Below are positions 568-57,413 of a stretch of DNA of 64,000 nucleotides, one piece after another. The translations under genes and the position numbers were made by a program. Each line of letters starts with the position of its first letter. Position 1 is the first letter of the stretch. The stretch spans positions 12,769 to 76,768 of the forward strand of contig CAXMSN010000001.1 of the NCBI GenBank assembly GCA_964196275.1. The letters run 5' to 3'. The notes below the pieces were generated by a model. It did not search any database, was not told where the DNA came from, and saw nothing but the letters and a program-made list of their open reading frames with translations. Origin of the DNA: an uncultured Kiloniellales bacterium. GTDB taxonomy: Bacteria > Actinomycetota > Acidimicrobiia > Spongiisociales > UBA5794.

Positions 568-713
568 CACCCAGACAACCCTACGCGAACCAGCACCGAT
601 CTTCAGGAGTCAGAGCTCACGGCCACGCGTGAGAATGCCCGTGGTCTGTGGTCTGTGGTCTGTGGTCCGTGGTCCGTGGTCCGTGGTCCGTGGTCCGGAG
701 CGAAGGCGAGCGA

Positions 714-926
714 TCAATATCCGTCGGAGCCGAAGCGGAGATTCTCCGCCTGTGCGTCCGTGCCTTCACCGATCAAGTCGAAGCGGACGCGCTGGCCTTG
801 GCGAAGGAAACGGAACATTGAGCCCTCAAGGCTCCCTGGTTTGAGGAGAACTTCGGAGCGGTCGTCATCGCGGACGATGATGCCCACTCCCGTTGCAGCG
901 TCGTAGACCTTGACGACGCCTTGCAT
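714..926 (-). CDS. Cold-shock-domain-like small protein (70 aa), degenerate RNP motifs
   Basis: C-terminal part of ORF 714..1103, taken from Met60 (MQGVVKVYDAATGVGIIVRDD...GQRVRFDLIGEGTDAQAENL). Its pattern matches the CspA fold (G.VK...G.G.I...G..L.EGQ.V.F....G..A.N). Its ATG overlaps the rpmB stop as TGATG. Confidence 0.45.
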   Translation of the reverse strand: MQGVVKVYDAATGVGIIVRDDDRSEVLLKPGSLEGSMFRFLRQGQRVRFDLIGEGTDAQAENLRFGSDGY

Positions 927-12368: not shown

Positions 12369-12387
12369 ACGGCTCGAACGAAGCAGG

Positions 12388-12473
12388 TATTACGTACCAC
12401 GTAGTACGTACAACTCCGGCGTCGTACTACGTAATCCGTACGACGCCCCACAGCCGGCTATCTCCCCTGCTAC
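12388..12473 (+). repeat. Composite TACGTA-hairpin plus pyrimidine-rich TCTCCCCTGC element, copy 1
   Basis: AT-rich island ATTACGTACCACGTAGTACGTAC...CGTACTACGTAAT. A 10-bp inverted repeat (ACGTAGTACG/CGTACTACGT) forms the stem. It is followed by CCGTACGAC...TCTCCCCTGCTAC. It lies between convergent cdd and etfA. Related copies are at ~23556, ~40888 and ~50115. Confidence 0.6.
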
Positions 12474-17274: not shown

Positions 17275-17326
17275 GGGTCGGCAGCTTAGCGCTGCCTCCA
17301 GACTCGCTCGGCTCCGCCTTCGCTGA

Positions 17327-17433
17327 CAGACCGCAGACCACAGGCGGCAGTCCCGCTCGCCGCACTCGCTGACAGGTCGGAAGCGGAGTTCTTGGTTGGC
17401 TGTTGTCTGTCGCCTGTGTTCTTCTGTCCGCCG
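17327..17433 (+). repeat. Heptad-type repeat motifs upstream of ffh (AGACCGC-AGACCAC and CTGTTGTCTGT-containing block)
   Basis: AGACCGCAGACCACAGG lies at 17327-17343 and TTGGTTGGCTGTTGTCTGTCGCCTGTGTTCTTCTGTCCGCCG at 17392-17433. They resemble the arrays at 641-696 and 20161-20194. They lie in the 174-nt upp/ffh divergent intergenic region, 15-55 nt before the ffh ATG. Confidence 0.4.
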
Positions 17434-17447
17434 TACACTCCGGATCC

Positions 17448-18791
17448 ATGTTCGATGCACTCTCATCCCGGCTCAATGGCGTATTTGGCGGCCTTCGTAG
17501 CAAGGGCAGGCTCAGCGAAGACGACGTGAACGCTACGCTGCGCGAGGTGCGATTGGCGCTCCTCGAGGCCGACGTGAACCTGAACGTCACGAAGGCGTTC
17601 ATCGAGAGGGTTCGGGTTCGGGCGATAGGCTCGGAGGTAACGAAGAGCCTCACGCCCGGCCAGCAGGTCATCAAGATCGTGCACGAGGAACTCGTGGTCA
17701 CGCTCGGAGATGCAGCGGCACCTTTGGTAAGACCGGCAGCCCCGCCGCTTGTCATCCTCATGGTGGGGCTTCAGGGGTCAGGTAAGACCACCACCGCGGC
17801 GAAGCTCGCACAGCACCTCAAGAGCAAGGGAAAGCGTCCCATGCTTATCGCTGCCGACCTTCAGCGCCCTGCTGCCATCGACCAACTCGAACAGCTGGGA
17901 CGGCAGATCGGTGTGCCCGTGTACGCCGAACGGGGCGGAAAGGCACCGAAGGTCGTCAAGGCTGGGATGAAAGCTGCGAGAGAAGAGAGTGCGAACGCGA
18001 TCATCGTGGACACCGCTGGCCGTCTCCAGATCGATACCGATCTCATGAAGGAGCTCGCGGCGATCGAGAAGGTTGCCGATCCCGATGAGACGCTGCTTGT
18101 CGTGGACGCTATGACCGGGCAGGAAGCGGTCAACGTTGCGCTGGGTTTTAAGAAGCACACGGATATCTCCGGTCTCGTGCTCACGAAGATCGACGGCGAT
18201 GCTCGTGGTGGCGCTGCAATCTCCGTCCGAGAGGTGACGGGCGTCCCGGTCAAATTCGTCGGAACGGGAGAATCCATCGACGGGCTGGATGTCTTTCATC
18301 CCGACCGTATGGCATCTCGAATCCTCGGGATGGGCGACGTGCTCACTCTCATCGAGAAGGCAGAGGCCAACTACGACGAGGAAGAGGCGGAACTGGCCGC
18401 AAAGAAGATGTTGGACGCGACGTTCGACCTCGAAGACTTCCTCGAGCAGTTCCAACAGATCAAGAGGATGGGGCCTTTGCAGCAACTCGTCGGTATGCTC
18501 CCGGGTGCAGGTTCGGCTTTAGGCGACATCCAGGTGGACGAGAAACAACTCGGCCGCGTGGAGGCGATTATCCGTTCGATGACTCCTCGGGAACGTCGAA
18601 ACCCCAAGATGATCACCGGTAGTCGTAAGCGTCGTATCGCTGCCGGGTCGGGAACCCGGCCGCAGGACGTCAATGGCGTTCTCAAACAGTTCTCGCAAGC
18701 GCAAAAGATGATGAAGGCAATGGCCGGTGGCAAGAGTCCCATCCCTGGGCTCCAGATGCCGGGCATGCCACGCACGACGAAGAAGAGGTAA
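17448..18791 (+). CDS. ffh: Signal recognition particle protein Ffh
   Basis: Starts MFDALSSRLNGVFGGL. NG domain with GLQGSGKTTT, DTAGR and TKIDGD motifs. Met-rich M domain at the C-terminus. Confidence 0.9.
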   Translation: MFDALSSRLNGVFGGLRSKGRLSEDDVNATLREVRLALLEADVNLNVTKAFIERVRVRAIGSEVTKSLTPGQQVIKIVHEELVVTLGDAAAPLVRPAAPPLVILMVGLQGSGKTTTAAKLAQHLKSKGKRPMLIAADLQRPAAIDQLEQLGRQIGVPVYAERGGKAPKVVKAGMKAAREESANAIIVDTAGRLQIDTDLMKELAAIEKVADPDETLLVVDAMTGQEAVNVALGFKKHTDISGLVLTKIDGDARGGAAISVREVTGVPVKFVGTGESIDGLDVFHPDRMASRILGMGDVLTLIEKAEANYDEEEAELAAKKMLDATFDLEDFLEQFQQIKRMGPLQQLVGMLPGAGSALGDIQVDEKQLGRVEAIIRSMTPRERRNPKMITGSRKRRIAAGSGTRPQDVNGVLKQFSQAQKMMKAMAGGKSPIPGLQMPGMPRTTKKR

Positions 18792-18798
18792 ACCAGAG

Positions 18799-19272
18799 AT
18801 GGCAACCAAAATCCGCCTGACGCGGCTTGGTAAGAAGAAACAGCCGACGTACCGCGTCGTCGTGATGGACTCCCGCAAGCCCCGTGATGGAAAATACATC
18901 GAGCAACTCGGGATCTACGATCCCCGCCAGCAGCCGTCGCTCATCAAGATCGACAACGAGCGGGCGCTCCATTGGCTTCGCACCGGTGCACAGCCGACAG
19001 AGCGGGCGCAGAAGCTCCTCGAGATTTCAGGAGCCTGGACCCAGTTCAAGGTGGCTAAGGGCGACATCCATACCGTGGCGGACACTCCTGCTGTGGTTGA
19101 GGAAGTTGTAGCTGAGGCGGTCGCTGTTGAGGCCGTTGCGGTTGAAGCAGACGACGGAGCAGAGGATGTCGGAAGTCCGAAGTCCGAGGTCCGAGCAGAA
19201 GAAGAGACAGAAGTAGCAGAAGCAGATCAGCAAGAAGAAGTAACCGCTGACGAGAGTTCGGAAGAAGCATGA
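18799..19272 (+). CDS. rpsP: 30S ribosomal protein S16 with acidic C-terminal extension
   Basis: Starts MATKIRLTRLGKKKQPTYRVVVMDSR. The C-terminal ~60 aa are E/A/V-rich (AVAVEAVAVEADDGAEDV...EETEVAEADQQEE). Confidence 0.9.
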   Translation: MATKIRLTRLGKKKQPTYRVVVMDSRKPRDGKYIEQLGIYDPRQQPSLIKIDNERALHWLRTGAQPTERAQKLLEISGAWTQFKVAKGDIHTVADTPAVVEEVVAEAVAVEAVAVEADDGAEDVGSPKSEVRAEEETEVAEADQQEEVTADESSEEA

Positions 19273-19521: not shown

Positions 19522-20085
19522 GTGGCCGAAGGCCATACAGATCGCATCCCCGTCGGATACGTGCGAAGACCGCACGGCATTCGTGGGGATGTTGTCGTTC
19601 GCGGCCTCGTAGACGACGCCGAAGCCAAGTTCGCAGTAGGAGCATCGTTCCTTTCGAACGAAGACCCGCCCGCTGATCTGACGATCGCGATGGTTGCTCC
19701 CTTGAAGGGCGACTACAGGATCCACTTCGAGGAGGTCTCCGACAGAAATCGCTCGGAGGGTCTCCAAGGCGTGCAGATCACAGTTCCGTCCGGCGAACGC
19801 AGGCAACTCGAAGACGACGGGTGGTGGCCCGAGGACCTGATCGGGTGCCAGGTACTCGACGCCGAAGGCAGCGAGATCGCCGTGGTTCGCGAGGTCATCA
19901 TCGGGAGCGCCCAAGATCGCCTGGCGGTAGAGGCGAAGGATGGCTCCACGGCCGAGATCCCATTCGTCGATGCACTCGTCCTCAAGGTCGACATCGCCAA
20001 CGATGAGATCATCGTCGATCTCCCGGACGGCCTGTTCGAGTCGACGGACCACGGACCACGGACCACGGACGGCAGAAGTTCTTAG
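19522..20085 (+). CDS. rimM: Ribosome maturation factor RimM
   Basis: GTG start immediately after the KH-gene stop. Contains the RimM GIRGDVVV motif and a PRC barrel. Its C-terminal residues DHGPRTTDG are encoded by a GGACCAC heptad repeat. Confidence 0.8.
   Translation: MAEGHTDRIPVGYVRRPHGIRGDVVVRGLVDDAEAKFAVGASFLSNEDPPADLTIAMVAPLKGDYRIHFEEVSDRNRSEGLQGVQITVPSGERRQLEDDGWWPEDLIGCQVLDAEGSEIAVVREVIIGSAQDRLAVEAKDGSTAEIPFVDALVLKVDIANDEIIVDLPDGLFESTDHGPRTTDGRSS
20046..20070 (+). repeat. (GGACCAC)x3.5 tandem heptamer inside the rimM 3' coding end
   Basis: A perfect GGACCACGGACCACGGACCACGGAC run. It is the reverse complement of the GTGGTCC unit in the 641-696 array. Confidence 0.8.
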
Positions 20086-20160
20086 ATCTGGCGACAGGCG
20101 GGCGTCGTGGCAGCGATCGCGACGACGTTCAAATCGAGGAAGCGACATTTCGTCCTTTTC

Positions 20161-20194
20161 TGGTCTGTTGTCTGTGGTCTGTTGTCTGTGGTCC
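20161..20194 (+). repeat. (TGGTCTGTTGTCTG)x2 + TGGTCC tandem repeat upstream of icmF
   Basis: Two perfect 14-mers followed by TGGTCC. It ends 25 nt before the icmF ATG. GTGGTC-family motif. Confidence 0.8.
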
Positions 20195-20218
20195 TCCGCC
20201 GTGACCTAATCTCGCCTT

Positions 20219-23539: not shown

Positions 23540-23555
23540 TCGCTCGGCTACGCCT

Positions 23556-23708
23556 CGCTCCGGACCATGGACTACGAGGCTTCCCCGTATTACGTATGAC
23601 GTATGACGTACTCCGGAGCGGCCTCGACGTTGTTCTGCTGATTGATCGATCAGAGCCGAGCGGCTTGGTAGAGAGCTACGGGCATTTCCGTGGTCCGTAG
23701 TCCTCTGC
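23556..23708 (+). repeat. Composite TACGTA-hairpin plus GTCCGTAGTCCTCTGC element, copy 2
   Basis: Inverted repeat CGCTCCGG (23556-63) / CCGGAGCG (23613-20) enclosing GGACCATGGACTAC and GTATTACGTATGACGTATGACGTAC. It is followed at 23688-23708 by CCGTGGTCCGTAGTCCTCTGC. It lies between convergent icmF and the Rieske-TPP gene. Confidence 0.55.
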
Positions 23709-25650: not shown

Positions 25651-25692
25651 AGACCACGGACCACGGACTACAGACTTCGGACTACGGAACCT
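25651..25692 (+). repeat. Degenerate heptad array AGACCAC-GGACCAC-GGACTAC-AGACTTC-GGACTAC-GGAACCT
   Basis: Six 7-nt units lying 12 nt upstream of the Rieske-TPP ATG. It reads GTGGTCC on the gene's sense strand. It lies between the lipoprotein gene and the Rieske-TPP gene. Confidence 0.7.
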
Positions 25693-40102: not shown

Positions 40103-40868
40103 CCCCCAGGAACAGGAACTGAAAGACCTCTGGACCGAGTTCAAGTCATCTGGTGATGAGCGCGCTCGCGAGGGGCTCATCCTTCACTACTCGCCGCTCG
40201 TCAAGTTCGTAGCCGGAAGGGTCGGTGCGGGGCTTCCGAAGAACGTCGACCATTCCGATCTCGTGTCGTACGGCACGTTCGGTCTCATCGACGCTGTCGA
40301 TAAGTTCGAGCCTGAACGTGGTTTCAAGTTCGAGACCTATGCCGTCAACCGAATCAAAGGTGCCATCCTCGACGAACTGCGTGCGCTCGACTGGGTGCCC
40401 CGATCGGTTCGCTCAAGGGCAAGAGAGATCCAGCGAACCATGGCGGAACTGAACCACACGCTCCAGCGGACGCCGACCGAAGAGGAAGTCGCGGAGTCGA
40501 TGGAAGTGCCACTCGACACGCTGCGGGGCCACCTCGGCGAGATCGCCAATCTCGGTTTCGTCGCGCTCGATGAACTGCTGAACCCATCAGAGAACGCGTC
40601 GGGCTCGATGACCGATGTCCTTCCGGACTCCGGCGCCATAGACCCGTCGGGAAGTTTCGAGAAGGAGGAGACCAGATACATGCTGGCCGACTCCATCAAC
40701 AGGCTTCCAGACCGCGAGCGTCTCGTCCTCACGTTGTACTACTACGAGGGCCTCACGCTCGCAGAGATCGGCGGCGTCCTCAACGTCACCGAGTCACGCA
40801 TCTGTCAGATCCATACCAAAGCAGTGATGAGCCTCCGCAACCGCTTCATAGAACCAGCGTTCAAATAG
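40095..40868 (+). CDS. whiG: Group-3 sigma-70 factor, WhiG/FliA/SigD type
   Basis: Region 2 (FETYAVNRIKGAILDELR), region 3 and region 4 HTH (LTLAEIGGVLNVTESRICQIHTKAV). Start overlaps the xerC stop by 8 nt. Confidence 0.75.
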   Translation: MPDPQEQELKDLWTEFKSSGDERAREGLILHYSPLVKFVAGRVGAGLPKNVDHSDLVSYGTFGLIDAVDKFEPERGFKFETYAVNRIKGAILDELRALDWVPRSVRSRAREIQRTMAELNHTLQRTPTEEEVAESMEVPLDTLRGHLGEIANLGFVALDELLNPSENASGSMTDVLPDSGAIDPSGSFEKEETRYMLADSINRLPDRERLVLTLYYYEGLTLAEIGGVLNVTESRICQIHTKAVMSLRNRFIEPAFK

Positions 40869-40887
40869 TCGCTCGCTTTGCTCGCCC

Positions 40888-40943
40888 CAGTAGTACGTAT
40901 TAGGTACTACGTAGTCCCGTATCCGTTATCTCCTCTGCCCGCC
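40888..40943 (+). repeat. Composite TACGTA-hairpin plus TCTCCTCTGCC element, copy 3
   Basis: CAGTAGTACGTATTAGGTACTACGTAGTCCCGTATCCGTTATCTCCTCTGCCCGCC. It begins 20 nt after the sigma-factor stop, in the rpsB leader region. Confidence 0.55.
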
Positions 40944-43764: not shown

Positions 43765-45678
43765 ATGCCAGATGATCCCCGCAACGACACCGAGTCCGGT
43801 GGCTTCGACGATTGGTTGTCCGAAGCGCCTGGCAAGGTCACCGACCCGTATGCCGAATCTGAGCTTGACGGACAAGATTCCGAAAATGACGAGTCTCAGT
43901 CGTCTGTCGACGATCCCGTCCTCGAGGAAGAAGCCGGGGACGACACCGAGCCGGAGTCTTCGGTCGACGATCCAGACCTCGATGAGGAGGCCAGTGACGA
44001 TGCCGAGTCGGAACACCCCGTCGCTGACGATGATGAGACGGCCGAGGCTGTACCCGACGCCGAGCCCCCGACACCTGTGGGTCCAGAAGTCGATCTGAAC
44101 AGCGACAGCGACGAGGACGATGACACGGACGAGGACCCCGTCACCAGTGTCGACGATGAGCGATCGGAGGAACAGGACGATACCGACGACACCGGAGAGA
44201 TCCCCATAGTCGAATCCGTCGAAAACGAACCAGCCGATCTCGCTCCAGAAGAGTTCCACGCCGAACCACTGGTCGAGTTCGAAGCCTTCGACGGCGGAGA
44301 CGAAGCGGACACGGGCGAACTCGAGATCGTCGCCCCCGCGCCCTTCGGTGAGATCGATTCTGGTCAGCAAGAGGCGACCCTCGTGTACGACGGGGCAGTC
44401 GAGTCGGATTCGTCCGTGCTTCCGGATGAATCTTCGGACGAGGACGAGTTGCAAGAGGATGACACATCCGAAGTGCCGATCGTTGCATGGTTCCCCGAAT
44501 CGACCGATGAGGACGTCTCGCAAAGTGACGACTTCGATCCGCTTGAGGACACCGGAGAAGCAGTCTTCGTTTCCGGTGAAGGCGCAAGTATCGCCGCAGC
44601 TGCTGCTGGATTCGGTGATCTTTGGGACGATGACTCAGTCGACGACTCATCCACCAACGACTCTCCGCAGGATGACGACGTCGAGGAGTTCACGCTCGGA
44701 GAAGGCGATCTGTTGCTAGGAGCAACTCAGGAGCACGTCGATCTTGCCGCCGCGATCGCCGCCGCTGAGAACGAGGACACCGAGCAGGTGGCGCTCGTCG
44801 CCGAGATTCCCGGGCTCGAAACGTCGGTTGTGGGCTTCGAAGATGTGGTTGAGGCTGAGGGCCACCGCCGCGTCAGGGCGAGAGCGTCGGGAGACCTCAT
44901 CGCTCGCGTCATCACCGGCATCGTTCTCGTCCTTGCGCTCGGGGCATCTCTCATCTGGCGCCCCGCTCTTGTCGTATTCGCCATAGCGGTGTTCGTTTTG
45001 GGAGCCGGCGAGTTCTACACGGCGCTCGTGCGCACAGACCGAAAGCCGATCGCCCTGTTCGGCTTCATCGGAATCATCGGTGCGAGCGTCGGCGCCTTCT
45101 TCTGGAGTGCAGTCGCGATTCCCATGGCCTTCGTGCTGGCAACCATCCTGTTGCTGCTCTTCTACGCTGTGGTACCTGGCAAGTCGGACCCGATGGGCAA
45201 TCTCGCTCTGACCACAACTGTCATGGTGTGGGCAGGTCTTGGCTCGTTTGCGATGCTCATCGCTCGCTCGGATGACTATCAGGTGCTCATCCTTGGGGTG
45301 GTTGTCGCCGTCGCGGCCGCTGACATAGCGGCGTTCTTTGTGGGTCGATCACTTGGACGCACACACTTCGCCCCATGGGTCTCGCCGAAGAAGACGGTTG
45401 AGGGACTGGTAGCGGGCATCGTGGTTGCCTTGGGCGTCGGAGCGATGCTTCACTTCTTCCCTCCCTTCGAACTCACCTCTGGCCTCGCCATAGGCGCAGC
45501 TGCAGCGTTTCTGACACCGGTCGGTGACCTCGCCATGTCCGCTGCCAAGCGATCCTTGGGCCTCAAGGACATGGGCTCAGTCCTTCCTGGCCACGGCGGA
45601 TTCCTCGATCGTATCGATGGCCTTCTTTTCGTCATTCCCGTCGCGTGGGCAGTGTTCATCTGGGCTGGCCTCCTCTGA
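43765..45678 (+). CDS. cdsA: Phosphatidate cytidylyltransferase CdsA with ~350-aa acidic low-complexity N-terminal extension
   Basis: The C-terminal ~280 aa are a polytopic CdsA core (CTP-transferase signature region SAAKRSLGLKDMGSVLPGHGGFLDRIDG). Residues 1-~350 are D/E-rich (~40% acidic) with internal repeats: SVDDPVLEEEAGDDTEPE / SVDDPDLDEEASDDAESE. Confidence 0.8.
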   Translation: MPDDPRNDTESGGFDDWLSEAPGKVTDPYAESELDGQDSENDESQSSVDDPVLEEEAGDDTEPESSVDDPDLDEEASDDAESEHPVADDDETAEAVPDAEPPTPVGPEVDLNSDSDEDDDTDEDPVTSVDDERSEEQDDTDDTGEIPIVESVENEPADLAPEEFHAEPLVEFEAFDGGDEADTGELEIVAPAPFGEIDSGQQEATLVYDGAVESDSSVLPDESSDEDELQEDDTSEVPIVAWFPESTDEDVSQSDDFDPLEDTGEAVFVSGEGASIAAAAAGFGDLWDDDSVDDSSTNDSPQDDDVEEFTLGEGDLLLGATQEHVDLAAAIAAAENEDTEQVALVAEIPGLETSVVGFEDVVEAEGHRRVRARASGDLIARVITGIVLVLALGASLIWRPALVVFAIAVFVLGAGEFYTALVRTDRKPIALFGFIGIIGASVGAFFWSAVAIPMAFVLATILLLLFYAVVPGKSDPMGNLALTTTVMVWAGLGSFAMLIARSDDYQVLILGVVVAVAAADIAAFFVGRSLGRTHFAPWVSPKKTVEGLVAGIVVALGVGAMLHFFPPFELTSGLAIGAAAAFLTPVGDLAMSAAKRSLGLKDMGSVLPGHGGFLDRIDGLLFVIPVAWAVFIWAGLL

Positions 45679-50110: not shown

Positions 50111-50114
50111 AGCC

Positions 50115-50170
50115 GCAGTACGTACCACGTAACACGTACTGCGTGATCCGGTAGTCCGTGGTCCTCTGCC
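50115..50170 (+). repeat. Composite TACGTA-hairpin plus GTAGTCCGTGGTCCTCTGCC element, copy 4
   Basis: Perfect 9-bp stem GCAGTACGT / ACGTACTGC around the loop ACCACGTAAC (50115-50142). It is followed by GTGATCCGGTAGTCCGTGGTCCTCTGCC. It lies in the MTase-proS intergenic region; CCACGGACC recurs at ~50192. Confidence 0.6.
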
Positions 50171-50210
50171 GAGCGCTATCCTCGCTCGAAGCCACGGACC
50201 CAGGAGACGC

Positions 50211-51914
50211 ATGCGCTGGTCGCAAGCTTTCATACCCACTCTGCGCGACGACCCTGCTGATGCAGAGGCGGTGAGTCACCGGTTGCTCGTACGGGCCGGG
50301 TACATACGGCAACTGATGGCCGGCGTGTACTCGATGCTTCCGCTCGGCCAGAGGGTCCGCACGAAAGTCATGAACATCATCCGCGAGGAGATCGATGCGA
50401 TCGGTGGTCAGGAGTTCCTCCTCCCGCAGATGCATCCCCGTGAGATCTGGGACCGCACAGGTCGCTCGGAGACGATGGCAGACATCATGATGTCCTTTCA
50501 GGACAACAAGGGTGCAGACATCATCCTCGGTCCCACGCATGAGGAGATCTTTGCGACCGTTTCGACCGAGTTGACCTCCTACAAGCAACTTCCGCAGCTG
50601 TGGTATCACATCCAGACCAAGTTCAGAGACGAGGCTCGGCCGAAGTCCGGCCTCCTACGTGTCCGAGAGTTCACGATGAAGGACTCGTATTCGTTCGACA
50701 TCGACGAGGCGGGTCTCGACCTCCAGTTCGATCGGCACTACGACGCCTACGTACGGATCTTCGAACGCCTTGGAATGAGCGTTGTCTCGGTCCGTGCTTC
50801 GTCTGGAGCCATGGGTGGCAAGGAATCTGTGGAGTTCATGGTCCGCAGCGACGTCGGTGAGGATGAGGTCGCACACTGCGCTGAGTGCGGCTACGCAGCC
50901 AACGTGGAGACCGCATCATCGGTGGTAGCACCGGTCGAAGATCCAGACGGTGAATTCGAACTCGAGCGGTTCGACACTCCCGCCGTCCGCACCATCGCCG
51001 ATCTCGAGGTCTTCGAAGGTGGTGCCTCGGCTGATCGACAAGTGAAGACGCTGGTATATGTGCTCGACGGCGACCTCGCGTTGGTACTCCTCAGAGGTGA
51101 CCACGTGCTCCAGGAGCAGAAGCTCAAGGACGAGGTGCGTGCGATAGTGGCGAGGCCTGCTCAGGCGGACGAGATCGTGAAACTTCTTGGTGCGGATGCC
51201 GGAAGCCTCGGAGCGGTCGGTGTCACGGACGTGCCGATATACGCAGATGCGGCACTCAAGGGCAGAACCTCGATGACGACGGGGGCGAACACCAACGACG
51301 TCCATGTTCGTGGCGTCGATGTGGAGCGGGACATCGGCGTGACTCAATGGGTCGACGTTCGTAGGGTGTTCGATGGTGAGCCATGCGTCGAGTGTGGCGC
51401 ACCGGTCAGCGTGTTTCCGGCCATCGAAGCTGGTCACATCTTCAAACTGGGGACTTTCTATGCCGAACCGCTCGGCGTGAAGGTGCTCGACAAGGATGGG
51501 AAGATGGTCCCCGTGGTGATGGGCTCGTATGGAATCGGAGTCGAACGTAACATGGCGGCCTCAGTCGAGGCGAACCACGACGACAAAGGGATTGTCTGGC
51601 CGATCGAGATAGCACCGTTCCACGTAGTGATCACGACAGTCCGACCCGACGACGAGGAAACCGAGCGTGTCAGCACCGAGATCTACGACGCGCTCGTTGC
51701 CGACGGTGTGGAGGTTCTCCTCGATGATCGTCACGAGCGCCCTGGGGTGAAGTTCAACGATGCCGAGTTGATAGGTGTTCCCGTTCGGATCACGGTCGGA
51801 CCGAGGGGCATCCAATCCGGGATCGCTGAAATCACTGAGCGTTCGACCGGAGTAAGCAGCGAGGTTGCTCTCGCTGATGTTGTCGCCGCCGTCAAGGACC
51901 TGCTCGCCGCGTAG
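50211..51914 (+). CDS. proS: Proline--tRNA ligase
   Basis: 567 aa, class II aaRS with an editing insertion. N-terminus MRWSQAFIPTLRDDPADAEAVSHRLLVRAGYIRQ. Confidence 0.9.
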   Translation: MRWSQAFIPTLRDDPADAEAVSHRLLVRAGYIRQLMAGVYSMLPLGQRVRTKVMNIIREEIDAIGGQEFLLPQMHPREIWDRTGRSETMADIMMSFQDNKGADIILGPTHEEIFATVSTELTSYKQLPQLWYHIQTKFRDEARPKSGLLRVREFTMKDSYSFDIDEAGLDLQFDRHYDAYVRIFERLGMSVVSVRASSGAMGGKESVEFMVRSDVGEDEVAHCAECGYAANVETASSVVAPVEDPDGEFELERFDTPAVRTIADLEVFEGGASADRQVKTLVYVLDGDLALVLLRGDHVLQEQKLKDEVRAIVARPAQADEIVKLLGADAGSLGAVGVTDVPIYADAALKGRTSMTTGANTNDVHVRGVDVERDIGVTQWVDVRRVFDGEPCVECGAPVSVFPAIEAGHIFKLGTFYAEPLGVKVLDKDGKMVPVVMGSYGIGVERNMAASVEANHDDKGIVWPIEIAPFHVVITTVRPDDEETERVSTEIYDALVADGVEVLLDDRHERPGVKFNDAELIGVPVRITVGPRGIQSGIAEITERSTGVSSEVALADVVAAVKDLLAA

Positions 51915-51988
51915 ACGCGTCGCGGTCACGAGGTTCGGCACCGCCGCCATCCTGATATACTGGCTTGACGAACCGAGATCTCTGCTGG

Positions 51989-52015
51989 GGTGGGCCGTGG
52001 CCCACCTTTTTGTTT
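51989..52015 (+). terminator. Rho-independent terminator downstream of proS
   Basis: GGTGGGCC-GT-GGCCCACC GC-rich hairpin followed by TTTTTGTTT. Confidence 0.65.
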
Positions 52016-52051: not shown

Positions 52052-52531
52052 GTGACAGGCGTCGCAGAGAGACTGTGGGGGACGATCGAACCCTACGTCG
52101 CGGCCGAAGGCGTGGAACTCGACGACCTCGAGGTACTCGGCGGCGGTCAGATCGTACGCGTCACACTCGATGCGAGCGAGCCTGTCGGAGTCGACATGAT
52201 CGCGGAACTCTCACGGGGAATCGGACGGCTGCTTGATGCCGATGATCCCATCAAGAGCGCATACACACTTGAGGTTTCGTCGCCTGGCCTTGAGCGGAAG
52301 CTCACTCGCCAGAGGCATTACGAGAAGTCGATCGGCCGAGAGATCAAGGTCAAAACCTTCGCCCCGGTTTCTGGCGAGAAGAGCCACAGCGGAGCCTTAC
52401 TTTCGGTGGACGACGCGGGGTTCGTAATCGATGTCGACGGTGAGAACCGAGAATTTACATATGGTGACGTCTCCTCGACACGGACTGTGTTCGTGTGGGA
52501 GAAGACGGCGCCCAAAGGGAAAGACGCGTAG
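52052..52531 (+). CDS. rimP: Ribosome maturation factor RimP
   Basis: GTG start with an AAGGAG RBS. 159 aa. Sits directly upstream of nusA. Confidence 0.8.
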   Translation: MTGVAERLWGTIEPYVAAEGVELDDLEVLGGGQIVRVTLDASEPVGVDMIAELSRGIGRLLDADDPIKSAYTLEVSSPGLERKLTRQRHYEKSIGREIKVKTFAPVSGEKSHSGALLSVDDAGFVIDVDGENREFTYGDVSSTRTVFVWEKTAPKGKDA

Positions 52532-52539
52532 GAGACACC

Positions 52540-53928
52540 ATGGACTACAACCTGATGGATGCACTGGAGCTTCTCGAGAGGGAGAAAGGTGTCCCACGAG
52601 ACACGATTCTCGAGGCGCTTGCTAACGCGCTCGTGTCAGCCTACAAGCGGACCCCAGGAGCAGCCGAAGAGGCTCGCGTAACGATCGACGCCGATTCCGG
52701 CGAGATCATCGTTTACGGCCAAGAGCTCGACGAGGACGGAAACGTCATTGAAGAGTGGGAGGACACACCGGGCGACTTCGGCCGGATCGCAGCGCAGACA
52801 GCCAAGCAGGTCATCCTCCAGCGGTTGCGCGATGCAAAGCGCTCCCAGGTGTTCGAGATCTACGAAGGCCGAGAAGGAGATCTCATCACCGGGATCGTTC
52901 AGCAGTCCGACCACCGGTTTGCGATCCTGGACCTTGGTGATGCTGAGGCAATGCTCCCCGGCTCAGAGAAGATTCCATATGAGCGGCTTGAGCGCGGCAA
53001 CCGAGTCAAGGCACTCATTCTTGAGGTCCGCGGTGAAGGCAAAGGTGCGCCAATCGTCGTGTCCAGGAGCCATCCCGAGTTCATTCGAGCGCTGTTCGCC
53101 CTTGAAGTGCCCGAACTCGTTGACGGTGACATTGAGATCAAAGTCATCGCACGCGAAGCCGGCCATCGGACCAAGATCGCGGTGGTCTCGCACGACCCGA
53201 ACGTTGACCCCGTAGGCGCGTGTGTCGGAGCCAGAGGTTCCCGCGTACGGCAAGTCGTGAACGAATTGAAGGGCGAGAAGGTCGACATCGTCGAGTGGGA
53301 TGACAATCCGAACTCGTTCATCGCCGAAGCGCTGAGTCCTGCGCGAGTGCTTGAGGTCAGAATCGACGAAGAAGAGCAGACCGCCATCGTGATCGTGCCG
53401 GACCATCAACTCTCACTCGCCATCGGCAAGGAGGGCCAGAATGCCCGTCTTGCAGCCAGGCTGAGTGGCTACCGCATCGACATTCGCTCCGAATCCCAGG
53501 ACCTCGGCCTCGATGTGCAAGAGGATGAGGAGGCCGAGTTCGAGACAGTTGCTGAAGGCGACGGTGCAGGAACGATGACACCAGCGGTCGAGGCTGACGA
53601 GACCGACGAGGCCGCCGCTGACGACGAGCCTGACGACGAGCCTGACGGCGACGCCGCACAGACTGACGCCACTGCTGACGATGAAGCTGAGGGCGATGCG
53701 ACTGATGACGAGGCCGAAGGCGACTCCGCTGACGAAACCGATGCGGTGGACGAGGAAGAGTCCGGCCAGGCAGATGCGGCTGATGAGGCTTCCGAAGTCG
53801 AAGATGCTGCGGAGCCTGCCGCTGAAGAAGATTCCGAAGAGGAAGCGCCGGCTGAACCGGTCGCTGACGATGGTGTCGATGCCGGGGAGGACGAACCCTC
53901 CGGTAACGACGATTCCGAGAACAAGTAG
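52540..53928 (+). CDS. nusA: Transcription termination/antitermination factor NusA with acidic C-terminal tail
   Basis: Starts MDYNLMDALELLEREKGV, with S1 and tandem KH domains. The C-terminal ~130 aa are D/E/A-rich (DDEPDDEPDGDAAQTDATADDEAEGD...). Confidence 0.9.
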   Translation: MDYNLMDALELLEREKGVPRDTILEALANALVSAYKRTPGAAEEARVTIDADSGEIIVYGQELDEDGNVIEEWEDTPGDFGRIAAQTAKQVILQRLRDAKRSQVFEIYEGREGDLITGIVQQSDHRFAILDLGDAEAMLPGSEKIPYERLERGNRVKALILEVRGEGKGAPIVVSRSHPEFIRALFALEVPELVDGDIEIKVIAREAGHRTKIAVVSHDPNVDPVGACVGARGSRVRQVVNELKGEKVDIVEWDDNPNSFIAEALSPARVLEVRIDEEEQTAIVIVPDHQLSLAIGKEGQNARLAARLSGYRIDIRSESQDLGLDVQEDEEAEFETVAEGDGAGTMTPAVEADETDEAAADDEPDDEPDGDAAQTDATADDEAEGDATDDEAEGDSADETDAVDEEESGQADAADEASEVEDAAEPAAEEDSEEEAPAEPVADDGVDAGEDEPSGNDDSENK

Positions 53929-56071: not shown

Positions 56072-56464
56072 ATGGCACGTCAGAAGAGCCCCCGGATGCG
56101 GAAGGTCAACGAGCTCGTACGCGAGATCGTTGCGGAAGCCGTTCAGGACCTCAAGGATCCCCGGATAGGGTTCCTCACGATCACCGGAGCGGAGACGAGC
56201 CCCGACCTTCGATCAGCGGTCGTCTATTACTCGGTCATGGGGACCGAAGAGGAGAAGAGCGGTACCGGAGATGCCCTGCGCTCCTCAGCGTCGAGGATCC
56301 AGAGAGAGATCGGAGCGCAGTCGACGCTCCGGTACACACCGAAGCTCGAGTTCAGAGTGGACCCTTCCATCGAGGAGGGAATCAGAATCTCGAAGCTCGT
56401 CGCCGGACTGGATACCGGTGAGGGCACACAGACCGGTGAGGGCACACAGGACGATGACCGATAA
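56072..56464 (+). CDS. rbfA: Ribosome-binding factor A
   Basis: Starts MARQKSPRMRKVNELVREIVAEAV. Confidence 0.9.
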   Translation: MARQKSPRMRKVNELVREIVAEAVQDLKDPRIGFLTITGAETSPDLRSAVVYYSVMGTEEEKSGTGDALRSSASRIQREIGAQSTLRYTPKLEFRVDPSIEEGIRISKLVAGLDTGEGTQTGEGTQDDDR

Positions 56465-57413
56465 ACGCGTGATCACCCCGGTGGTCGATGCGATCCGGGC
56501 GGCCGAAAGCATCGGCGTTGTCGGTCATGTGGGCCCTGACGGTGACGCGCTCGGCTCGATGATCGCTCTCGCGCTGGCTGCCACCGAGAACGGCAAGACG
56601 GGAGTCGCTTCCTTCGCCGAGCCGTTCGTGGTGCCTGCCGAGATGTCATACCTGGACACGTCCGTTCTTGTTGTCCCGTCAGTGTTTCCCACCAACCTTG
56701 ACCTTGCGGTAGCGGTGGACACATCGGTCCGCCATCGCGTCGGCTCGCTGGCGGGTGCGATGGAGCAGGCTTCGATACTGGCCGTGATCGACCATCACAT
56801 CTCCGATGGCTCATGGGGGGATGTCACCGCCATCGATCCGAAGGCTGCGGCGACGACCGAACTCGTCTATCAGATCATCAAGGAACTCGGGTGGCCGATC
56901 TCGGAACCGGTTGCGACAGCCCTCTATACCGGTCTTGTCACCGACACTGGTCGGTTCCAGTACTCGTCGACATCCCCGAGTACACATCGAATCGCCGCCG
57001 ATCTGCTCTCGTGTGGCGTGGAACCTGATGTCATCGGCCAGCAACTGTTCGAAGAGGCTCCGTTCGGTTACTACGCCGTCGCTGCGGCGGTTCTTGCCCG
57101 TTCCGTAATGGACGTTGATCACGAATTCGTCTGGTCGATGCTGACGATGGCGGATCTCGATGATGCCGGTGTGGCCTATCACGAGGTCGACGGCTTGATC
57201 GATCTCGTGCGGATGGCGAGAGGCACCGAGGTGGCATGCCTCCTGAAGGAGGCGAAGCCCGGCGTGATCAAGGGTAGCTTGCGTTCCCGGGGGCTGATCG
57301 ACGTGTCGGCGATCGCCGGGACATTCGGCGGTGGCGGACACCACAACGCCTCGGGGTTCACATCCACCGATCCGCCTGAGGACATCGTCGAGCAGATCGT
57401 TTCGCACCTGTAA
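56454..57413 (+). CDS. nrnA: DHH-family bifunctional oligoribonuclease/pAp phosphatase NrnA
   Basis: Starts at the internal Met MTDKRVITPVVDAI. Contains DHH motifs (VGHVGPDGDALGS, VIDHH) and GGGH in the DHHA1 domain. Confidence 0.8.
   Translation: MTDKRVITPVVDAIRAAESIGVVGHVGPDGDALGSMIALALAATENGKTGVASFAEPFVVPAEMSYLDTSVLVVPSVFPTNLDLAVAVDTSVRHRVGSLAGAMEQASILAVIDHHISDGSWGDVTAIDPKAAATTELVYQIIKELGWPISEPVATALYTGLVTDTGRFQYSSTSPSTHRIAADLLSCGVEPDVIGQQLFEEAPFGYYAVAAAVLARSVMDVDHEFVWSMLTMADLDDAGVAYHEVDGLIDLVRMARGTEVACLLKEAKPGVIKGSLRSRGLIDVSAIAGTFGGGGHHNASGFTSTDPPEDIVEQIVSHL

Follow-up and report, generated by a model that had tools for sequence, protein, structure and literature searches.

A family of seven-base tandem repeats between the genes of an uncultured Acidimicrobiia bacterium

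Results

The main array and its genomic context

A stretch of 64,000 nt from the genome of an uncultured Acidimicrobiia bacterium (assembly GCA_964196275.1, contig CAXMSN010000001.1, positions 12,769 to 76,768; G+C content about 61%), here called the window, contains an array of seven-base tandem repeats at positions 641-696. The surrounding genes on the minus strand are arranged in the order rpmB (ribosomal protein L28, 926-1114), a gene for a cold-shock-domain (CSD)-like protein (714-926), the array, and a gene for a membrane-anchored hypothetical protein that begins near 575, and recG is divergently oriented from 1221. The stop codon of the CSD-like gene and the start of the array are separated by 18 nt. 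The genes were mapped with a crude open reading frame (ORF) and GC3 call of our own and with the gene tables of related loci.

The plus strand sequence of 641-696 is (GTGGTCT)3(GTGGTCC)5 with zero mismatches, exactly as a first-pass annotation of the window had described it, and Tandem Repeats Finder called a repeat at 639-697 with a period of 7, 8.4 copies, and 96% matches. The exclusion of CRISPR by that annotation was also justified, because the units are contiguous, 7 nt long, and free of spacers, whereas CRISPR have repeats of about 23-50 nt and unique spacers of similar length. About a dozen 7-base tandem repeats, this array among them, lie between the genes of this bacterium (Table 1). 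The units belong, roughly, to a family NGACNNC (GNNGTCN on the other strand) and to a sister type, ACGTANN. Within the window, each array lies either in an intergenic spacer or among the final codons of a gene, namely that for S16 or RimM, and none was found in a gene body.

Copy number change and turnover among related genomes

The sister assembly GCA_964196555.1 covers positions 1-23538 of the window with two loci, L211 and L212 (loci from other genomes carry L numbers throughout). The alignment consisted of two stretches of 13.4 kb and 14.3 kb that overlap by 4.2 kb, with identities of 99.65% and 99.76% and with 26 and 35 substitutions, respectively. A single indel was present in these 23.5 kb. 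It has a length of 21 bp, equivalent to three units, and lies in the main array, which reads (GTGGTCT)3(GTGGTCC)2 in L211 versus (GTGGTCT)3(GTGGTCC)5 in the window. That the only indel between two genomes that are about 99.7% identical comprises three repeat units supports the proposal, made with the first-pass annotation, that the arrays are simple sequence repeats (SSRs) that change by slippage. The comparison of unit numbers between strains had been suggested at the same time, and both copy numbers and unit variants turned out to differ in orthologous spacers.

Relatives at 82-91% identity have other heptamers or other copy numbers in the orthologous spacers. With L002 (90.7% identical), the flanks could be aligned over 11 kb without an indel of at least 4 nt, whereas the spacer 3′ of the CSD-like gene is completely rebuilt from AGACCC, AGACCAC, and GCTCGCT modules. 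L004 (82% identical over the single coding stretch that could be aligned) and L223 have still other arrangements of that spacer. The array upstream of icmF, our short name for a fused isobutyryl-CoA-mutase-like gene (Pfam B12-binding, MeaB, and MM_CoA_mutase), has five GTNGTCT units with a variable third base in the window, L212, L218, L219, and L220, three units in L214, two units in L216 and L221, and none in L213 and L215. In every case, this array is separated from the ATG by the leader GACCTAATCTCGCC. In L213, the spacer orthologous to 23688-23708 contains GTGGTCC GTGGTCT at the same place.

The tract (GGACCAC)3 at the end of rimM is absent in the relatives, which carry ...GAGGACGGA... 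/ GTCGAGGACGGATCTTCCTAG there. As the relatives read GTCGAGGACGGATCTTCCTAG at this site, a GGAC already present there was the seed from which the array grew. It adds seven codons in comparison to the relatives, and the insertion of exactly three units (21 nt) kept the reading frame. Arrays are thus born in place from short seeds, the GGAC at the rimM end being an example.

A metagenome scan with IcmF yielded only distant relatives (at most 73% identical), which were used as an outgroup and not for strain comparison. These distant relatives are poor in such arrays: the 889 kb that surround IcmF homologues with about 60% identity contained only nine period-7, seven period-8, and two period-9 arrays at a minimum score of 14. 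Three of the nine period-7 arrays belong to the closest relative, L131; they lie at the position orthologous to that of the window's arrays downstream of icmF and have different units. The richness in heptamers is specific to the lineage of the window.

The stretch GACCTAATCTCGCC(T/C)T directly before the icmF ATG (window 20200-20218) is kept in nine of nine relatives, even where the remaining spacer cannot be aligned. Because no Shine-Dalgarno-like purine run is visible in it, the stretch may be an unusual translation-initiation or regulatory signal. The sister contig CAXMUF010000031.1 (L212) ends exactly at the icmF stop codon (window 23538/23539), just before the spacer with leader and heptamers, which suggests that these repeats break short-read assemblies.

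Excess of tandem heptamers over chance

Arrays of at least two units with at most one mismatch each to GTGGTCC were found seven times, versus 0.58 expected in Markov-2 random sequence, although one of the seven (51990-52003) belongs to a terminator hairpin and is not a true member. At a fixed score threshold, six period-7 arrays were found versus 0.43 expected. The other periods from 4 to 12 were near expectation, save for a few period-6 and period-9 repeats, which were not placed on gene calls. The word GTGGTCC occurs 22 times versus 12.0 ± 2.9 expected; the 12 copies within arrays make up the entire excess, and the 10 isolated copies are at chance level. Because the excess of the word comes wholly from tandem copies, the signal is tandem repetition and not a dispersed recognition word. 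The second suggestion of the first-pass annotation, a recurrent protein- or RNA-recognition motif, gains no support from isolated copies, and binding to whole arrays is taken up in the Discussion as an improbable alternative.

Members of the family

The seven further sites that had been listed together with the main array are all present as described, but the list had missed the ACGTANN family, the GTNGTCT units at 17399-17433, and the tract in the S16 tail at 19164-19195 (Table 1). The ACGTANN family occupies 12385-12440, 23586-23610, 40889-40930, and 50118-50142, and its unit ACGTACC is one base off ACGGACC. At the last of these sites, the inverted units GTAGTCC GTGGTCC lie at 50151-50164.

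Upstream of ffh, the units AGACCGC AGACCAC at 17327-17343 are followed by a second leader-like copy at 17354-17372 and by the inverted units at 17399-17433; the two arms pair in the predicted fold, with a z-score of only -0.2. The start of ffh was taken as the ATG at 17449; the first start codon of its ORF is at 17403. The array at 20161-20194 can alternatively be read as 2.4 copies of TGGTCTGTTGTCTG. The convergent spacer downstream of icmF has arrays on both sides, 23562-23575 (GGACCATGGACTAC) and 23688-23708 (GTGGTCCGTAGTCC), and a local hairpin was seen in the fold at the latter. The candidate 51990-52003 (GTGGGCCGTGGCCC) was rejected as a family member because its sequence forms the stem of a common terminator hairpin with a T-run behind it.

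Table 1. Heptamer arrays of the window with their leaders and the CSD-like gene next to the main array
Positions	Strand	Feature	Context
641-696	-	Main array; minus strand reading (GGACCAC)5(AGACCAC)3	Minus is the coding strand of the flanking genes
692-713	-	C-rich post-stop leader TCGCTCGCCTTCGCTCC	Directly after TGA of the CSD-like gene, into the main array; leader-model match E 8e-4
714-926	-	Gene for 70-aa CSD-like protein	Pfam CSD; overlaps L28 stop; context only
12385-12440	.	ACGTANN-type degenerate heptamers (TTACGTA CCACGTA GTACGTA ...)	Between convergent genes; fold z -2.6
17304-17343	+	Leader TCGCTCGGCTCCGCCTTCGCTGAC, then AGACCGC AGACCAC	Spacer between divergent minus strand gene and ffh
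17399-17433	+	Degenerate GTNGTCT-type units (GTTGTCT GTCGCCT GTGTTCT ...)	16 nt before ATG 17449
19164-19195	+	Period-7 tract, GAAGTCC-type	Variable C-terminal tail of ribosomal protein S16
20040-20070	+	(GGACCAC)3.5 (array 20046-20070)	3′ tail of rimM
20157-20194	+	Five GTNGTCY units (CTGGTCT GTTGTCT GTGGTCT GTTGTCT GTGGTCC)	24 nt before icmF ATG
23540-23575	+	Post-stop leader TCGCTCGGCTACGCCTCGCTCC, then GGACCAT GGACTAC	Directly after icmF TAA; leader-model match E 1.8e-5
23586-23610	+	CGTATGA x3.6	ACGTANN sister family
23688-23708	-	GGACTAC GGACCAC (plus strand GTGGTCC GTAGTCC)	Directly after stop of minus strand Rieske/TPP gene
25651-25692	+	Six degenerate units AGACCAC GGACCAC GGACTAC AGACTTC GGACTAC GGAACC	Spacer between two minus strand genes
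40869-40930	+	Leader TCGCTCGCTTTGCTCGCCCC, then degenerate ACGTA/GTAGTCC-type heptamers	Post-stop; leader-model match E 1.6e-4
50118-50164	+	ACGTACC ACGTAAC ACGTACT, then inverted GTAGTCC GTGGTCC	Between two plus strand genes; fold z -3.6

Layout of the array-bearing spacers

The sequence TCGCTCG immediately follows three real stop codons, namely those of the CSD-like gene (716), of icmF (23537), and of a gene ending at 40868. About 0.02 such coincidences are expected from the 39 TCGCTCG words on both strands. The leader after these stop codons is C-rich, ends with CGCTCC (CTCGCCCC after the stop codon at 40868), and runs into heptamers. In the window, a sequence model of the leader detected four strong copies and a weaker fifth one; it also matched L002, L004, L211, L213, and L223, and had no match in the outgroup loci (about 890 kb). 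With gapless patterns, only the query copy of the leader was retrieved. The leader also follows the icmF stop codon in L213, and L211 contains an inverted copy together with GTNGTCT units upstream of a start codon.

The arrays have a polarity with respect to the coding strand. In about 18 of 20 arrays of the lineage, the C-rich GGACCAC form follows a stop codon or the G/U-rich GTGGTCY form precedes a start codon, and in spacers with both forms the C-rich form is always first. A stretch of 49 nt is 92% identical between two non-orthologous spacers, L004 10213-10260 and window 17284-17332, although the coding identity of the two genomes is only about 82% where it could be aligned. This match hints that modules of leader plus heptamers were copied between loci.

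Folding and signal searches

Six array-bearing spacer segments and eight controls were folded in silico, and three further array spacers were folded separately. No consistent difference in fold stability was found between array spacers and control spacers. A striking structure was predicted for the pair of arrays between rimM and icmF (20040-20070 with 20157-20194), which form a stem of about 30 bp (minimum free energy -92 kcal/mol, z-score -5.05). For the spacer 50111-50210, the z-score was -3.6. The transcript of the main-array spacer is predicted to be unstructured (z-score 0.05), and the z-scores of the other array spacers (-0.2, -0.7, +0.5, and +0.9) were no better than those of the controls. 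RNAalifold analysis of eight orthologous rimM-icmF spacers yielded -0.94 kcal/mol and no shared helix over the arrays. As the helix is not conserved in the eight orthologues, the hairpin is a recent pairing private to this lineage. Scans of the whole window with Rfam and for tRNAs gave no match, and scans for consensus promoters and terminators around the arrays revealed no such site at the arrays.

The same unit in other phyla

Exact (GGACCAC)3 was found in at least 120 stretches when one genome per species was searched, several of them from the same genome. The matches listed include Planctomycetota, Verrucomicrobiota, Acidobacteriota, Streptomyces, Bacteroidota, Myxococcota, Chloroflexota, and others. 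At the loci of these listed matches, another 88 arrays of period 7 are present and their units are diverse, compound arrays shift their unit by single-base steps, and period 7 is several-fold more frequent than every other period. For 77 (GGACCAC)n arrays from the same matches, the orientation relative to co-directional genes was 33 versus 18, with 16 arrays between divergent and 10 between convergent genes. The nearer gene lay on the 5′ side in 34 of the 77 arrays, so that no preference for a gene-proximal end was apparent. The strand bias relative to flanking genes is thus at most weak across phyla. In viral contigs, (GGACCAC)3 was found in 27 stretches versus 9, 9, 10, and 15 for four composition-matched controls.

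Because this is an excess of only about 2.5-fold, GGACCAC is somewhat favored and not a special universal motif; the latter was also rejected in view of the many other units at the same loci and the weak strand bias at most. The general phenomenon is that of heptamer microsatellites. Among cultured or nearly complete genomes of other phyla, extremely heptamer-rich ones were encountered in Haloferula sargassicola NBRC 104335 (L013, L034, and L038), where AAGCACC x9 adjoins GGACCAC x10 in one example, and in a metagenome-assembled Rubricoccaceae genome (L017-L105).

Further observations on genes of the window

The start of the CSD-like gene overlaps the L28 stop codon as ATGA, and the L28/CSD-like gene pair is present in 10 of 10 related loci examined. 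The CSD-like protein is 31% identical to E. coli CspA, and the aromatic RNA-binding residues are substituted: W11, F18, F20, F31, and H33 of the CspA RNP motifs correspond to V, V, I, L, and K. Because these residues are replaced, the protein may not be a canonical nucleic-acid-binding cold-shock protein, and for the same reason the proximity of its gene was rejected as evidence for a link between the array and cold-shock proteins.

Ribosomal protein S16 (window 18727-19272) has an acidic, repeat-rich C-terminal extension, and the S16 proteins of relatives (L213-L221) range from 112 to 203 aa despite an identical KH protein. The S16 tail of L216 has three copies of a 30-nt motif, 90 nt apart, from GACGACGGA-type units. 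The region 51984-52015, GGTGGGCC-GT-GGCCCACC followed by TTTTTGTTT, is an apparent ordinary intrinsic terminator after a gene ending at 51914. Other repeats of the window are a 57-bp tandem duplication at 43898-44012 (2.0 copies, 79% matches) within a 637-aa ORF (43765-45678), a perfect 18-bp direct duplication at 56414-56449 (ACCGGTGAGGGCACACAG x2) within the ORF 56271-57413, and, at 53589-53790 near the 3′ end of a 477-aa ORF (52495-53928), clustered GA/C-rich tandem repeats (GACGAG-type) of 9, 12, 18, and 27 bp that probably encode an acidic low-complexity tail.

Discussion

Slippage as the probable origin of the arrays

Taken together, the results indicate that the main array is probably one locus of a lineage-specific heptanucleotide microsatellite family that evolves by slippage. 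It is established that the arrays consist of contiguous 7-nt tandem units, that they are confined to non-coding DNA and the 3′ tails of genes, that copy number differs at the strain level, that units turn over, and that an array was born in place. The arrays would grow and shrink by slipped-strand mispairing during replication. Loops of seven nucleotides are too large for mismatch repair correction, and the loops formed in the arrays would escape it. Because 7 is not a multiple of 3, arrays would be tolerated only where a frameshift is harmless, and purifying selection against frameshifts would confine them to spacers and dispensable 3′ tails. In this lineage, the spacers have a recurring layout that leads from a stop codon via a C-rich leader (TCGCTCG...CGCTCC) to GGACCAC-form units, with GTGGTCY-form units just before the start codon that follows; the two forms often make up an inverted pair. 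Most likely, the consequence is that the length and the local pairing of 3′ and 5′ untranslated regions are heritable and change fast; a dedicated sequence-specific function is less likely.

Several points weigh against this interpretation. Slippage was deduced from a single comparison of two strains, both represented by metagenome assemblies, and population heterogeneity or assembler behavior could contribute to the difference, although the 56-bp array is shorter than a typical read. Unrelated spacers have a common unit core and a common leader, and independent slippage alone does not account for these features. Neither does it account for the strand polarity or for the 49-nt match between the spacers of L004 and the window. 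All of these are hints of copying between loci or of selection. Because simple slippage leaves the leader, the polarity, and the 49-nt match unexplained, two alternatives were retained.

Alternative explanations

The first alternative, which we regard as unlikely, is that the arrays are the expandable parts of a small dispersed spacer element, similar to repetitive extragenic palindromic (REP) sequences or to miniature inverted-repeat transposable elements (MITE), that was copied between intergenic sites, with slippage acting only after insertion. Such an element, equally doubtful, would be composed of leader, GAC-form units, core, GTC-form units, and inverted leader. The leader indeed precedes arrays in four spacers of the window and at non-orthologous sites in L002, L004, and L211, and the 49-nt match lies in differing contexts, but an all-against-all BLAST of the spacers revealed little beyond heptamers and about 7 nt of flank. 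The constant position of the GAC form as the first arm of inverted pairs and the inverted leader with GTC-form units before a start codon in L211 fit the postulated order, but neither target-site duplications nor conserved cores were seen at the arrays. Palindromy is inconsistent: three spacers have stable hairpins (z-scores of -5.05, -3.6, and -2.6), whereas the main-array spacer and four others resemble the controls. In addition, the rimM array clearly grew from a seed at its present site. A transposase or RAYT-like gene was not seen adjoining the arrays, although no search aimed at such genes was made.

It is improbable that the arrays serve as multivalent platforms at which a protein with a footprint of 7 nt, for example a cold-shock-domain protein, binds RNA or single-stranded DNA, or that they are C-rich Rho tracts similar to rut sites. 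The flanking genes would then, with as little probability, have their translation initiation, antitermination, or termination adjusted by the copy number. Each CspB molecule of Bacillus subtilis binds one heptanucleotide, with the consensus 5′-GTCTTTG/T-3′ and a strong preference for C3, T2, T4, and T6 (PMC1904285; PMC4679880). By eye, GTCTGTG and GTCTGTT match this consensus at six of seven positions, including the four preferred ones. This holds for the register GTCTGT(G/T/C) with G or T at the last position, and a random heptamer would reach it in some register in an estimated 3% or so of cases; the GTCCGTG units of 662-696 match at five of seven positions. The GTCTGT form lies on the coding strand 16-40 nt before the starts of icmF, ffh, the Rieske gene, and the gene at 50211, and the form with more C than G lies after stop codons. 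Most other bacterial heptamer families (GGGAATC, TAACTGA), however, are unlike the CspB consensus, and the CSD-like neighbor of the main array lacks the aromatic residues for nucleic-acid stacking. The length of five units upstream of icmF is common to four lineages with differing flanks, but the copy number at this site varies from 0 to 5 among relatives, and no structure is conserved in the eight rimM-icmF spacers. The arrays of other phyla also argue against a binding platform, with at most a weak strand bias and no preference for a gene-proximal end among the 77 arrays described above.

A special form of this idea, just as improbable, is that the 7-nt period reflects the tandem loading of a CSD-type single-strand-binding protein and not a quirk of the polymerase. 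The GUCUGUK units before start codons would then be near-consensus CSD sites, and the C-rich units after stop codons might be their pairing partners or rut-like tracts, an assignment for which the odds are no better. If tandem loading occurred, slippage would give each gene a heritable and quickly adjustable dose of chaperone recruitment, and a reason would be offered for the dominance of heptamers among bacterial long SSRs.

The period alone does not exclude a protein-binding array, contrary to a remark of the first-pass annotation on helical phase and OmpR-type sites. ToxR, which is among the regulators at the heptads of the Vibrio cholerae ctxAB promoter, is an OmpR-type protein. According to a preprint, these contiguous TTTTGAT heptads recruit transcriptional regulators (bioRxiv 10.1101/2021.05.14.444153). 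The heptameric direct repeats of SARP-type regulators were ruled out, as those heptamers have gaps of 4 or 15 nt (a periodicity of 11 nt) and adjoin a -10 box (PMC8780764), whereas the units in the window are contiguous.

We consider it very improbable that the arrays are phase-variation (contingency) switches that act via promoter spacing or via the reading frame of a neighboring gene. The copy number does vary between strains, and heptamer SSRs upstream of Haemophilus influenzae hmw act in this way, as stated in two reports (PMC12721329, PMC8262952). Here, however, the neighbors are housekeeping genes (L28/CSD, rimM, icmF, and ffh) and not surface or restriction genes, the arrays lie after stop codons or in 3′ tails and never in 5′ coding regions, promoter-like hexamers do not flank them, and the organism is an environmental, free-living bacterium. 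Chance or an assembly artefact is hardly credible at all, as the general tendency of assemblers to mis-size repeats is opposed by arrays at the same positions in several independent assemblies and by the strong excess in arrays, period 7, and word counts.

Implications

Slippage in a heptanucleotide microsatellite family is thus the interpretation that we prefer. The present case adds natural copy number change between near-identical genomes and the birth of an array from a 4-nt seed in a gene tail. The post-stop leader, the strand polarity, and the inverted pairs are handles for asking whether such arrays are tolerated or used, and a cultured strain from one of the heptamer-rich groups would give a practical experimental system. 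The arrays can serve as strain-typing markers, and contigs from metagenome assemblies of this group may break at them.

Comparison with known heptamer repeats

The family is of a known kind, resembling long SSRs (LSSRs) with heptanucleotide units and the short tandemly repeated repetitive (STRR) sequences of cyanobacteria; what is new, as far as found, is its occurrence in Acidimicrobiia, for which our literature search retrieved no paper describing such heptamer repeats. Heptanucleotide repeats have reportedly been known since the work of Mazel in 1990 on STRR sequences with the units CCCCAGT, TTGGTCA, and CAACAGT. Among long SSRs, the class with heptanucleotide units is the most abundant in the majority of prokaryotic genomes, and an origin of these repeats by slippage has been suggested (Mrazek 2007, as summarized in PMC4679880). 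The arrays in the window agree with this class in their contiguous head-to-tail units, the excess of many dispersed loci, the bias to non-coding DNA, the dominance of period 7, the lineage-specific richness, and the polymorphism between strains and species at orthologous loci. They differ in the host, an Acidimicrobiia bacterium with about 61% G+C, in the units (GGACCAC, AGACCAC, GGACTAC, and ACGTANN), in the short length of two to eight units, and in the recurring post-stop leader and the transcript polarity that this lineage adds.

The GGGAATC heptamers of Xanthomonas have a conserved position and a variable length and sequence (Rehm et al. 2015, PMC4692102). Like these and the GGGGAYT heptamers of Nostoc, the arrays are intergenic, lie near ORF ends and at the same genes in related species with variable content, and form inverted pairs, with one form downstream on the coding strand and its complement upstream (PMC4692102). 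In contrast, the G-tract units of Xanthomonas and Nostoc form G-quadruplexes and prefer four units, whereas GGACCAC lacks a G-tract and no structure is predicted for the transcript of 641-696. The TAACTGA repeats of marine Beggiatoaceae, cyanobacteria, and Bacteroidetes also comprise two to six heptamers before start codons and share their unit across distant phyla (MacGregor 2015, PMC4679880), and S1, Csp, and CsrA have been proposed as their binders (PMC4679880). Here, however, the complementary form also occurs after stop codons, and the cross-phylum recurrence of (GGACCAC)3 is about 2.5-fold that of the controls in viral contigs.

Other systems are less similar. The repeats at H. influenzae hmw and V. 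cholerae ctxAB (TTTTGAT) share contiguous 7-bp units and a copy number that varies between strains, but they are single virulence loci in promoters or 5′-UTRs (untranslated regions) with demonstrated effects on expression, whereas the arrays described here are a dispersed family next to housekeeping genes. REP sequences, the bacterial interspersed mosaic elements (BIME), and mycobacterial interspersed repetitive units (MIRU) are likewise dispersed and intergenic, abut stop and start codons, and have hairpin potential in some copies. However, REP sequences are palindromes of 20-40 nt and MIRU are units of 40-100 bp, whereas the arrays here repeat a 7-nt unit and have no more in common than a leader of about 20 nt. 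In summary, the family is the Acidimicrobiia counterpart of the STRR repeats of cyanobacteria, the GGGAATC repeats of Xanthomonas, and the TAACTGA repeats of Beggiatoaceae.

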